Shown here: positions 17,528 through 60,405 of the stretch, piece after piece | How the letters are laid out: each line of letters opens with the position of its first letter | Numbering within the stretch: the first letter of the stretch is position 1 | Assembly (NCBI RefSeq): GCF_964194155.1 | Contig: NC_135884.1 | Span: 96,224,001-96,288,000 of the forward strand | DNA: 64,000 nucleotides | Reading direction: 5' to 3' | Origin: Cetorhinus maximus | Taxonomy: Eukaryota | Notes under the pieces: generated by a model | Told to the model about the DNA's origin: nothing | The model's database searches: none | What the model saw: only the letters and a program-made list of their open reading frames with translations | Made by a program: the position numbers and the translations under genes

Positions 17528-18382
17528 TCAGGAACAGCAGCTACATTTGTCAGAGGGATTCCCTTTACACACACAGCCATTGGCGCAGTTCGTGCATCCT
17601 GCAGGACAGCAAGAGCAGCAACCTGAGAGGAGAGGACAAAGACAGAAATCAGGAACAATGAATGAATTCACTGAATCACCCCCTAGGCCTCCCGTTACAG
17701 CGCTCAGCACCTCCCTCACAAACTAATCTCTGTCATATCTCCAAGTTACCCATCTGAAGAGTCTCAGCATCAGAACACTGTGTGTGAGAGAGTTTGGGTG
17801 AAGATGTAACTGTCACTGTCTCTACAACAATATTTCTAGTGAGAAGTCTATAATATCAACACTTCCTGATGTAAAACTAAGACACTTCTTTAGCCAGCAG
17901 GGTTCCGTCTCCAGATTCTTTCGATTGGACATTGAATAAATCTGATGGGAAATAAATCAGGTGAAATCATGGATCTTGTACTTTTCTATCGTGTTCCTCT
18001 CTGAGTTCTGCCCAGAACTATCTGTCACATAAACACAATGTGAGGAGTTTCAAACTCTCCCACAGTTACTCACTTTTCCGGCAGCGTCCAGCTTTGCTGC
18101 TGGGACATCGGCAGTCGGAGCACCTGCAGGTGTTTTCACAGGAGCAGGATCCTGAAAACAGGAAAAACACAGACACTGAGTTGTGGGAAAACCATGAGAA
18201 ATGCCCCCCGTGTGGAGGAGGCCCGGCTCTTTGTCACATTCTCTTCTCCAGTGACTTTCAGAAACAGCCTCCCCTACAATGCTGCAGCCCCTCAGTGAGA
18301 CTGAGCCGGCACACTGTGCTGAAAGGACTGACACCAGTCACCACTCACCATCCAGGCACACACAGGGTTTCGAGTCAGACAT
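17528..18382 (-). CDS. mt: Metallothionein copy 1 (3 exons, 68 aa, 20 Cys)
   Basis: Exons 18382-18349, 18151-18074 and 17622-17528 (34+78+95 nt) with GT-AG introns. Splices to [74 protein letters not shown] on minus at 17366-17361. Confidence 0.96.
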
Positions 18383-18464
18383 TTCAGGAACTTCTTCTTT
18401 AGTTTCGAGCAGTCACCCAATCAGCACTTCTCGATCTTGTGCCGTTTGCTGAATCGGAGCCGAG

Positions 18465-18590
18465 TTTTATGGGCTTGTGATCGGTGGGGAACCGGCTGCA
18501 GAAGCGGGGAAGGGGCGGGTCTGTCCGGGCTGAATGCACACGGGGCACCGAAGTGATTCAGTGGCTGAAAGTTTGAATTGCACCCGGCTC
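18465..18590 (-). promoter_or_regulatory. MT copy 1 proximal promoter: 2 MREs, GC box, CATAAAA TATA-like box
   Basis: TGCACAC 18535-18541 and TGCACCC(GGCTC) 18579-18585 match the MTF-1 core TGCRCNC. GGGGCGGG 18512-18519. CATAAAA on minus at 18471-18465. Confidence 0.85.
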
Positions 18591-19793
18591 CTTCACTCAC
18601 AACGCGGCCCAAAAAGATTTCTCAGTGACACCAATTTCAATCGGGTCCTTTGTGTTTGTAATTATTTCCAGAGTGACTAAAATCACACTTCAGTCTACAA
18701 GGTGGACATAGGGTCCTCTCCATTCCCCCAGGTCCACCCTGATCTCAACAATGGGTATGACAGACAATTGGTTTCACCACACACCGCCACATCTGGCTGC
18801 TCCAGATTACACATTATCCGCCTCTCCCCCGCTCCCTCAACACTGCTCACCATCCCAGAATCACCCTGGAATACAAGAATAACCCTTGGTGTCTTTTTTC
18901 TCCCACTAACCTTCATCTTGGAGAACACCCCAAGATATTTTCTTTCTTATTCGTTCAAGAGATGTTGGCACCACTGACAATGCCAACGTTTGTTGCCCAT
19001 CTCTAATTGCCCTTGAGAAGGTGGTGCTGAGCTGCCTTCTTGAACATGTGCAGTCCATGTGGTGTAGGAACACCCACAGTGCTGTTAGGGAGGGAGTTCC
19101 AGGATTTGCCCAGTGGAACCAAACCTGAACATCAGTGAGCAGCTGATTGGTGAATAAGTGACCCATGATAGCACTGCCCATGTCACCTCCCATCACTTTG
19201 TTCATAATGAAGAGCAGGCTGCTGGCACAGTACTTCGCAGGATTGGATTTTTCCTGCTTTTAGCGTTTTGGCCATCCCTGGACAGTTTTCTACATTGCCA
19301 GCTCGATTCCATTATTGTAGCTGTACTGTAACAGAGCATTCCTTAAATGGTGATAGGTTGGGAAATTTGGTGTCCAAAGAAATCTGGGTGTCCTTGTTCA
19401 TGAGCTACTAAAAGGTGCAGCAAATAGGAAGGCAAATGGTATGTTGGCCTTCATTGCAAGGGGATTTGTGTACAGGAGGAAAGATGTCTTGCTGCAATTG
19501 TGCAGGGCCTTGGTGAAACCTCACCTGGAGTATTGTGTACATCTTTTGGTTTTGGTCCCCTTATCTAATGAAGTTTATACTTGCCTTAGAGAAAGTGCAA
19601 TGGAGGGTCTCCAGACTGATCCCTGGGATGGCAGGATTGTGTTATGTGGAGAGATTGAGGAAACTGTGCCTGTACTCTCCAGAGTTTTAATCTCATTAAT
19701 CTCCAGACAGGTGATCTCATTAAAACTTAAAAAATTCTTACCAGGTGTAACAGGGACGATGTGGATAGGATGTTTCCCATGGCTGGTGAATCT

Positions 19794-58987: not shown

Positions 58988-59467
58988 GGGTGCACACGGT
59001 CCAAATGTCACCTGTACTCCTGGTTCCTGACACTGATCAGACAAAACTGATCAATTCTCATCTCTCCAAAGACTGGGGCTTTGAAACGTGCTGCCCATTG
59101 GAAGCACAACATCAATGTAAACTCTGTTAGACATCAAAACAGGTGAGAAATCCCTGGGACACAGGATCTGGCAGAGCAATGAGAAACCAGCAAATATCCA
59201 AAACAGAGAGTGCAGTCCTGGATTCGCCCGCACTGTGGGGGTGAAACGTGTTGCAGACGCTCAGACACACGCTGACTCCACAGGAAATGTTGGGAAATTG
59301 CTGTCATTGAGAAATCTTTTTGGGCCGTGTTGTGAGTGAAGGAGCCGGGTGCAATTCAAACTTTCAGCCGCTGAATCACTTCGGTGCCCCGTGTGCATTC
59401 AGCCCGGACAGACCCGCCCCTTCCCCGCTTCTGCAGCCGGTTCCCCACCGATCACAAGCCCATAAAA
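58988..59467 (+). promoter_or_regulatory. MT copy 6 promoter with distal and proximal MREs
   Basis: Overlapping double core GGGTGCACAC 58988-58997, GAGTGCA 59208-59214, GGGTGCA 59347-59353, GTGTGCA 59391-59397, a GC box, and CATAAAA 59461-59467. Confidence 0.85.
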
Positions 59468-59549
59468 CTCGGCTCCGATTCAGCAAACGGCACAAGATCG
59501 AGAAGTGCTGATTGGGTGACGGCTCGAAGCTGAAGAAAAAGTTCCTGAA

Positions 59550-60405
59550 ATGTCTGACTCGAAGCCCTGTGTGTGCCTGGATGGTGAGTGGTGACTGGTG
59601 TCAGTCCTTTCAGCACAGTGTCCCGGCTCAGTCTCACTGAGGGGCTGCAGCATTGTAGGGGAGGCTGTTTCTGAAAGTCACTGGAGAAGAGAATGTGACA
59701 AAGAGCCGGGCCTCCTCCACACGGGGGGCATTTCTCAGGGTTTTCCCACAACTCAGTGTCTGTGTTTTTCCTGTTTTCAGGATCCTGCTCCTGTGAAAAC
59801 ACCTGCAGGTGCTCCGACTGCCGATGTCCCAGCAGCAAAGCTGGACGCTGCCGGAAAAGTGAGTAACTGTGGGAGAGTTTAAAACTCCTCACATTGTATT
59901 TATGTGACAGATAGTTCTGGGCAGAACTCAGAGAGGACCACGATAGAAAAGTACAAGATCCAAGATTTCACCTGATTTATTTCCCATCAGATTTATTCAA
60001 TGTCCAATCGAAAGAATCTGGAGACAGGAACCCTGCTGGTTAAAGAAGTGTCTTAGTTTTACATCAGGAAGTGTTGATATTATAGACTTCTCACTAGAAA
60101 TAGTGTTGTAGAGACAGTGACAGTTACATCTTCACCCAAAGTCTCACACACACAGTGTTGTGATGCTGAGCCTCTTCAGATGGGTAACTTGGAGGTATGA
60201 CAGAGATTAGTTTGTGAGGGAGGTGCTGGGGGCTGTAATGGGAGGCCCTGGGGGTGTTTCAGTGAATTCATTCATTGTTCCTGATTTCTGTCTTTGTCCT
60301 CTCCTCTCAGGTTGCTGCCCTTGCTGTCCTGCAGGATGCACGAACTGCGCCAATGGCTGTGTGTGTAAAGGGAATCCCTCTGACAAATGTAGCTGCTGTT
60401 CCTGA
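59550..60405 (+). CDS. mt: Metallothionein copy 6 (3 exons, 68 aa, S41P variant)
   Basis: Exons 59550-59583, 59781-59858 and 60311-60405. The alpha domain starts CCPCC. AATAAA 60565-60570. Confidence 0.96.

Follow-up and report, generated by a model that had tools for sequence, protein, structure and literature searches.

Does the metallothionein (MT) gene cluster in this part of the Cetorhinus maximus genome reflect a recent burst of copies or a long-kept array, and what holds its exons so close together? The stretch analysed here (the window) comprises 64,000 nucleotides of contig C6 (C6:96,224,001-96,288,000; positions without a prefix are window coordinates), for which a preliminary description had proposed six intact, almost identical MT genes and a recent expansion. 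Our analysis indicates that these genes probably belong to a genuine and old array in which 16 copies, 14 of them apparently intact, stand in tandem and inverted order; it encodes a 68-residue MT at the MT–NUP93 locus and may have a dosage role in metal buffering. The six window genes are listed below; X1 and X3 are sequencing runs introduced later.

17528-18382, minus strand: MT copy g1 (exons 18349-18382, 18074-18151 and 17528-17622; parsing and genome search)
25488-26343, plus strand: MT copy g2 (exons 25488-25521, 25719-25796 and 26249-26343; AATAAA at 26507-26512; both GT..AG joints in X3)
35022-35875, plus strand: MT copy g3 (P6S; g1-like promoter acquired by conversion)
44489-45343, plus strand: MT copy g4 (parsing)
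55017-55861, minus strand: MT copy g5 (9-nt deletion in intron 1; intron-2 haplotype found as one contig in X1)
59550-60405, plus strand: MT copy g6 (S41P; parsing)

All six genes had exons of 34, 78 and 95 nt with GT/AG at all four splice sites and encoded 68 residues with 20 Cys; four proteins were identical, and g3 and g6 differed by P6S and S41P, just as the preliminary description had reported. A six-frame scan recovered the MT exon-2 and exon-3 peptides six times in the window. The two metal-responsive elements (MREs), the GC box and the polyadenylation signal claimed for each gene were also present, with MRE cores at -203 and -159, the GC box at -136, a TATA-like CATAAAA (CGTAAAA in g5) and AATAAA ~160 nt after the stop codon. 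The MRE, GC-box and TATA consensus motifs used were the generally known ones, and a motif scan placed them in g2 as follows.

25285-25291 and 25329-25335 (MREs), 25352-25357 (GC box) and 25399-25405 (TATA-like box), plus strand: promoter of g2

MRE cores occurred in 15 of the 16 promoters of the array, and the window contained 68 cores versus 39.6 +/- 6.9 in shuffled sequences, partly because duplications multiply the core. The product showed the organization of vertebrate (family 1) MTs, with a 9-Cys N-terminal and an 11-Cys C-terminal domain that aligned with coelacanth and shark MTs. Pfam Metallothio (PF00131; cut-off 23) scored exon 3 of g2 at 34.6 bits and exons 2 and 3 of an MT retrocopy located on contig C5 at 44.4 bits.

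The cluster continued far beyond the six genes. Parsing of the window and the 190 kb to its right (254 kb in total, N-free) revealed 16 full three-exon copies over 134 kb (C6:96,241,528-96,375,589; 10 on the plus and 6 on the minus strand), the window holding the first six and the region beyond it ten more, so that the earlier count was right about its six genes and an underestimate of the array. A sequence search of the shark's own 3.99-Gb genome returned 16 long matches, and a protein search returned 19, namely the 16 copies, an orphan exon 3 (C6:96,386,352), a canonical MT and the C5 retrocopy. Since nothing matching was found to the left of g1 in these genome searches, g1 marks the left end of the array; promoter-only fragments were also present in the region. 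The reading frame and all 20 Cys were kept in every one of the 16 copies, nine of which encode one identical protein, and 15 of the 16 had GT-AG at every splice site. Judged from their sequences, 14 copies look intact; in g7 the intron-2 donor is changed from GT to AT, and in g9 a retroelement of ~2.6 kb lies inside the promoter, with no MRE within 1 kb.

In human and mouse, according to the accessible part of PMC3081807, the MT cluster is flanked by BBS2 and NUP93. The shark array likewise occupies the MT-cluster position beside NUP93, whose exons (Nic96) were found at C6:96.517-96.522 Mb, ~115 kb past the canonical MT; BBS2 lies on the same contig, 6.5 Mb upstream. An independent tandem amplification in a chondrichthyan, as proposed before, is upheld, at the MT–NUP93 locus and separate from the mammalian MT1 array.

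Which MT was amplified? Alignment identified it as the chondrichthyan-type 68-residue MT, which has five extra residues before the ninth Cys compared with the canonical MT located nearby.

C6:96,401,387-96,402,033, minus strand: canonical 62-residue MT (TATAAA, four proximal MREs)

A search of the shark's own genome found no second copy of this canonical gene. Two MT types thus stand side by side in this shark, a point relevant to biomarker assays, and the amplified one is the long-spacer type only. Like the array proteins, MT_SCYTO of Scyliorhinus torazame (Q6J1T3) and its relatives in Heptranchias, Mustelus, Stegostoma, Carcharodon and Callorhinchus have 68 residues, 20 Cys and, ahead of the ninth Cys of the beta domain, a longer spacer containing KAGR; each species contributes one named record, which is not a copy count, versus 16 copies here. 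Of the 68 residues, 5 differ from Q6J1T3, 7 from Heptranchias, 7 from Mustelus, 11 from Stegostoma and 20 from Callorhinchus. Because the 68-residue type is also found in Callorhinchus, it is as old as chondrichthyans.

Among named records, XP_041046718, a model from white shark, came closest (95% against the retrocopy query). No other white shark MT model was returned. It has no exon 1, begins in an upstream flank and is two Cys short; the N-terminus, which is mis-predicted, corresponds to sequence found ~500-680 nt upstream of the array copies. A model that begins in this way shows how easily annotation can miss the array. This one protein and its flank point to a lamniform, probably lamnid, host. 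The Cys loss is what a decayed array copy would be predicted to show. No orthologous copy could be assigned to the model, as its upstream part matches several copies about equally (73-87%).

Are the copies real and transcribed, and do relatives have them? We compared Logan contigs from four of 24 listed runs with g2: X1 and X3, which are different samples of organism A, and X5 and X6, which are DNA runs of two related organisms, B and C. X1 contained the g5 intron haplotype as one contig together with tags of g10 and g16, with gaps in coverage over exon 1 and intron 1, and X3 contained tags of g10, g11 and g12. The idea that the assembly falsely duplicated one or two genes, or haplotypes, draws some support from the facts that X1 may be the assembled sample and that no listed contig spans a whole unit. 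Nevertheless, it is hardly credible, since the copies are 2.2-7.6% apart in intron 2, have different flanks and both orientations, and left tags of g5, g10 and g16 in X1 and of g10, g11 and g12 in a second sample. The closest pair (2.2%) alone stands far above the shark nucleotide diversity of 0.002 given in the accessible text of PMC10587355. The assembly artefact that the preliminary description had named as its possible undoing was thus not what we found.

In X3, both introns were skipped at GT..AG joints, in agreement with the three-exon genes described earlier. Since the exon1–exon2 joint is absent from the retrocopy, it reflects spliced RNA. Both letters were present in X3 at the 3' untranslated region (UTR) site 26390 (172/439 depth), which hints at more than one expressed copy class, although RNA levels cannot be read from contigs and intron sequence is covered in X3 as well.

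In X5 and X6, single sites were covered by as many as 9-10 contigs, and the two 3'-flank classes both occurred. Collapsed 5' contigs had depths of 186-192 in X5 and 29-32 in X6, versus 14-32 and 3.5-9 for the lowest variant contigs. Tags from these runs were closest to g7, g9, g10/g11 and the orphan exon, and variants specific to particular copies were found at 25274 (of g16, in X5) and 26109-26110 (of g5, in X6). Organisms B and C therefore carry several copies, a word to be read as such and not as a count, because Logan contigs lose rare variants and their depth does not translate into a number of copies. The presence in B and C of variants of particular copies places the expansion before the split of A, B and C. 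Two further tags, X6_25302 and X6_26599, had no match within the array region or the C5 retrocopy locus. Loose ends at 26192/26226 in X1 and X5 were considered as a possible extra copy and rejected, as they map to contig C2, where there is no MT exon.

The divergence between copies bears directly on their age. Coding sequences differed by 1.1%, and mean divergence was 0.97% from exon 1 through intron 1 to exon 2, 1.5% in exon 3, 3.4% in the promoter, 5.0% in intron 2 and 5.8% in the 3' UTR, reaching 7.7% in shared 3' flanks (35 of 120 pairs) and 8.9% in shared 5' flanks (54 of 120 pairs). "Almost identical" hence describes the exons and intron 1 and fails for the 5' flanks. Younger units were also seen, the g2-g4 triplication being 96.5-97.2% identical and g10/g11 94%. 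When borrowed synonymous substitution rates from the accessible part of PMC9826928 were applied to flank divergence, 8.9% corresponded roughly to 41, 54 or 252 Myr, and the ~3% of the g2-g4 triplication to 14-85 Myr. A tree of 15 copies (g9, with its split promoter, was excluded) was star-like with mostly low support and gave no duplication order.

A recent, species-specific burst, possibly a segregating copy-number variant (CNV), would accord with the 1.1% coding divergence, and the g2-g4 and g10/g11 units, younger than the rest, could vary between individuals. Such a burst is very unlikely, as even the closest pair is 2.2% apart in intron 2, flanks are 8-9% apart, and several copies, with variants in common, were seen in both B and C. 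The marks of a recent segmental duplication or CNV, near-identity over flanks as well as exons and absence in relatives, were not found. Because the flanks of most units are 8-9% apart and B and C carry copies with shared variants, the expansion is not supported as recent, in contrast to this part of the preliminary description. The coding near-identity is maintained and is not a sign of youth.

What maintains it? Across copies, pS was 0.030 and pN 0.006; the variable codons were 6 synonymous versus 5 nonsynonymous, a departure from neutral site proportions (P=0.014), and every Cys was retained. Exchange between copies was indicated by a PHI-like recombination test (p=0.0014; 15 copies, g9 excluded) and by 43.6% incompatible site pairs versus at most 39.1% in 200 simulations with no recombination. 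The flank of g3 grouped with that of g2 (71 vs 18 sites) and its promoter with that of g1 (3 vs 11 sites; Fisher p=3.5e-5), and g4 had a g1-like end of intron 2 (p=8.5e-4); both mosaic triplets were chosen post hoc, after inspection of the data. In addition, letters absent from all 16 copies filled the entire contig depth at 25538 in X5 and at 25759 in X6, which fits concerted evolution, with the reservation that collapsed contigs show the majority only. Together, these results indicate that the near-identity stems from purifying selection and gene conversion.

An old array might instead have been kept by nothing more than birth-and-death turnover and purifying selection, conversion playing little part and selection for dosage none, in a rearrangement-prone region of a slowly evolving genome whose copies have gathered too few substitutions to decay. 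Decay is visible in the g7 donor, the g9 promoter, the orphan exon 3, the promoter-only fragments and the white shark model short of two Cys; moreover, the lamnid synonymous rate in the accessible part of PMC9826928 gives a dS of 1.9% over 55 Myr, so that a pS of 3% needs no homogenisation. We consider this explanation unlikely, because, with flanks 8-9% apart, intron 1 is ~1% apart and neither the frame nor any of the 20 Cys has been lost in any of the 16 copies, and because exchange is evident from the mosaic promoters and introns.

How widely the array is shared among sharks is a further question. S29, R36, N59 and P60 were common to the array copies and XP_041046718 alone and were absent in Scyliorhinus, Mustelus, Heptranchias and Stegostoma. 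This distribution, which conversion could also produce, speaks against an array ancestral to most sharks that is collapsed or unannotated in other assemblies, as does the one named record per other species, though that is no count. The upper age of ~250 Myr would allow such an ancestral array, and tiny exons and collapse hide arrays of this kind; even so, we regard it as improbable. It is conceivable, if still doubtful, that an array of 14-16 copies of a shark-specific MT, homogenised by conversion, evolved in lamniform sharks, or perhaps only in the warm-bodied lamnids, and was long retained there as a high-dosage genetic basis on which these apex predators cope with heavy Hg, Cd and Zn loads or oxidative stress. 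If true, this would be among the highest MT gene dosages in vertebrates.

Vertebrate MTs bind seven Zn/Cd ions, act as thiol antioxidants and are controlled by MTF-1. For the old, homogenised 16-copy array that we favor, unequal and inverted recombination would have multiplied units of 3-10 kb, most recently (g2-g4) between the following Penelope-like elements.

19919-21588, plus strand: fragment of a Penelope-like retroelement bordering the g2-g4 triplication on the left (94.7% to 28299-31123)
28299-31123, plus strand: Penelope-like retroelement between g2 and g3, with reverse transcriptase and GIY-YIG remnants (Pfam RVT_1 E 3.5e-5, GIY-YIG E 0.0025, both under cut-offs)
37832-40658, plus strand: Penelope-like retroelement between g3 and g4 (96.3% to 28299-31123)
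47401-50205, plus strand: Penelope-like retroelement, right border of the g2-g4 triplication (91.5% to 28299-31123)

Four Penelope-like copies around g2, g3 and g4 are the pattern of unequal crossing-over between repeats; units of greater age occur in inverted and truncated form, with no recoverable order. Most copies would have arisen before the split from organisms B and C, ~40-250 Myr ago, after which purifying selection on the protein and gene conversion would hold the exons and intron 1 at ~1% while the flanks drift to 8-9%. The copies would act additively through their MREs, presumably via MTF-1, to supply more of one Zn/Cd/Cu/Hg-binding, thiol-antioxidant protein. Since they encode almost one protein and are homogenised, we infer selection on amount and not on new functions, that is, gene dosage rather than functional divergence. 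The catshark MT gene is induced by Cd, Cu and Zn, as summarised in the accessible part of the review PMC7643557.

Several observations weigh against this interpretation. Its dosage-adaptation step is the weakest part. Array copies mostly have two proximal MREs and a non-consensus TATA box, whereas the canonical gene has four proximal MREs and TATAAA. X3 is not on record as RNA and covers introns as well as DNA upstream of the promoter; the run search returned no RNA run, which says nothing about expression either way. The age range derives from borrowed synonymous rates applied to retroelement-rich flanks. As for conversion, incompatibility at a minor count of at least 3 was 0.72, below the simulated maximum of 0.80 (mean 0.36), a GENECONV-like run test was significant in only 1 of 105 pairs, and intron 1 differs little between organisms too, so that constraint may explain part of its uniformity.

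The human MT1 array comprises 13 copies, 8 of them active, over ~66 kb and encodes diverged proteins, and the units of yeast CUP1 are near-identical head-to-tail repeats that change quickly. The shark array resembles the human one (BBS2–MT–NUP93; accessible part of PMC3081807) in its position beside NUP93, in the amplification of one MT type next to a single neighbour and in the decay of some copies. It differs in having 16 copies, 14 apparently intact, over 134 kb in mixed orientation, with 9 of the 16 encoding one protein, in amplifying a different, chondrichthyan-type paralogue, and in the 6.5-Mb distance of BBS2. It parallels, by an independent route, the expansion of MT1 that primates show at this locus. 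With CUP1, as described in the accessible part of PMC12637435, it has in common multiple tandem MT gene copies and the logic of dosage; in contrast to CUP1, its units are diverged, rearranged and old.

Our literature search found no paper on a shark MT array and none pairing metallothionein with Lamnidae; most subscription papers and supplements fell outside its scope, and the array might appear in gene-family tables published with shark genomes. The only cloned shark MT gene found in that search was the catshark gene, the accessible part of PMC8476144 was silent on sharks, and PMC9826928 contains no mention of metallothionein. The protein and the phenomenon are of known kinds, and this instance, its size and its homogenisation appear to be unreported. 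MT-based detoxification in sharks is a stated knowledge gap in the accessible part of PMC7643557, and Hg is higher in white shark and mako than in thresher in that of PMC13537363. The array is a concrete candidate for metal handling in large predatory sharks, and its link to apex-shark metal loads is a hypothesis.

The C5 retrocopy (C5:133,352,730-133,353,170) is processed, lacks exon 1 and has a stop at codon 26. It consists of ~80 nt of a retroelement 3' end followed by exon 2, exon 3, the UTR and poly(A), with 7-nt target-site repeats on both sides, and the element–MT junction coincides with the element's own GT donor position. Its UTR is nearest to g13 and its element part to the insert in the g9 promoter. 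This structure points to probable germline transcription of an element-driven, spliced MT transcript.

Two further features lie upstream of g2.

21792-21973, no strand assigned: partial copy of the MT promoter in inverted orientation, carrying its GC box and both MREs (blastn of the promoter; also upstream of g3, g4 and g10)
22030-22069, plus strand: putative alternative first exon, with an ATG in frame at 22051 and a GT donor at 22070 (single X3 contig)

The X3 contig, which has a loose end at exon 2, maps to 22030-22069 and to identical places upstream of g4 and g10. Spliced to exon 2, the candidate exon is predicted by a frame check of this one contig to give an isoform of 63 residues with 18 Cys. 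In g10 and g11, part of the 3' UTR (C6:96,327,684 and 96,336,863 onward) is tandemly duplicated, leaving two AATAAA ~190 nt apart. Beside g9 and g13, a 3.3-kb segment is duplicated (93%; C6 ~96.309-96.313 Mb and ~96.349-96.353 Mb) and contains LTR-element-like open reading frame remnants that appear, by eye, integrase- and protease-like. Finally, a 29-bp GC-rich minisatellite (53839-54474; 22 copies, 97% matches) adjoins the 3' end of g5.

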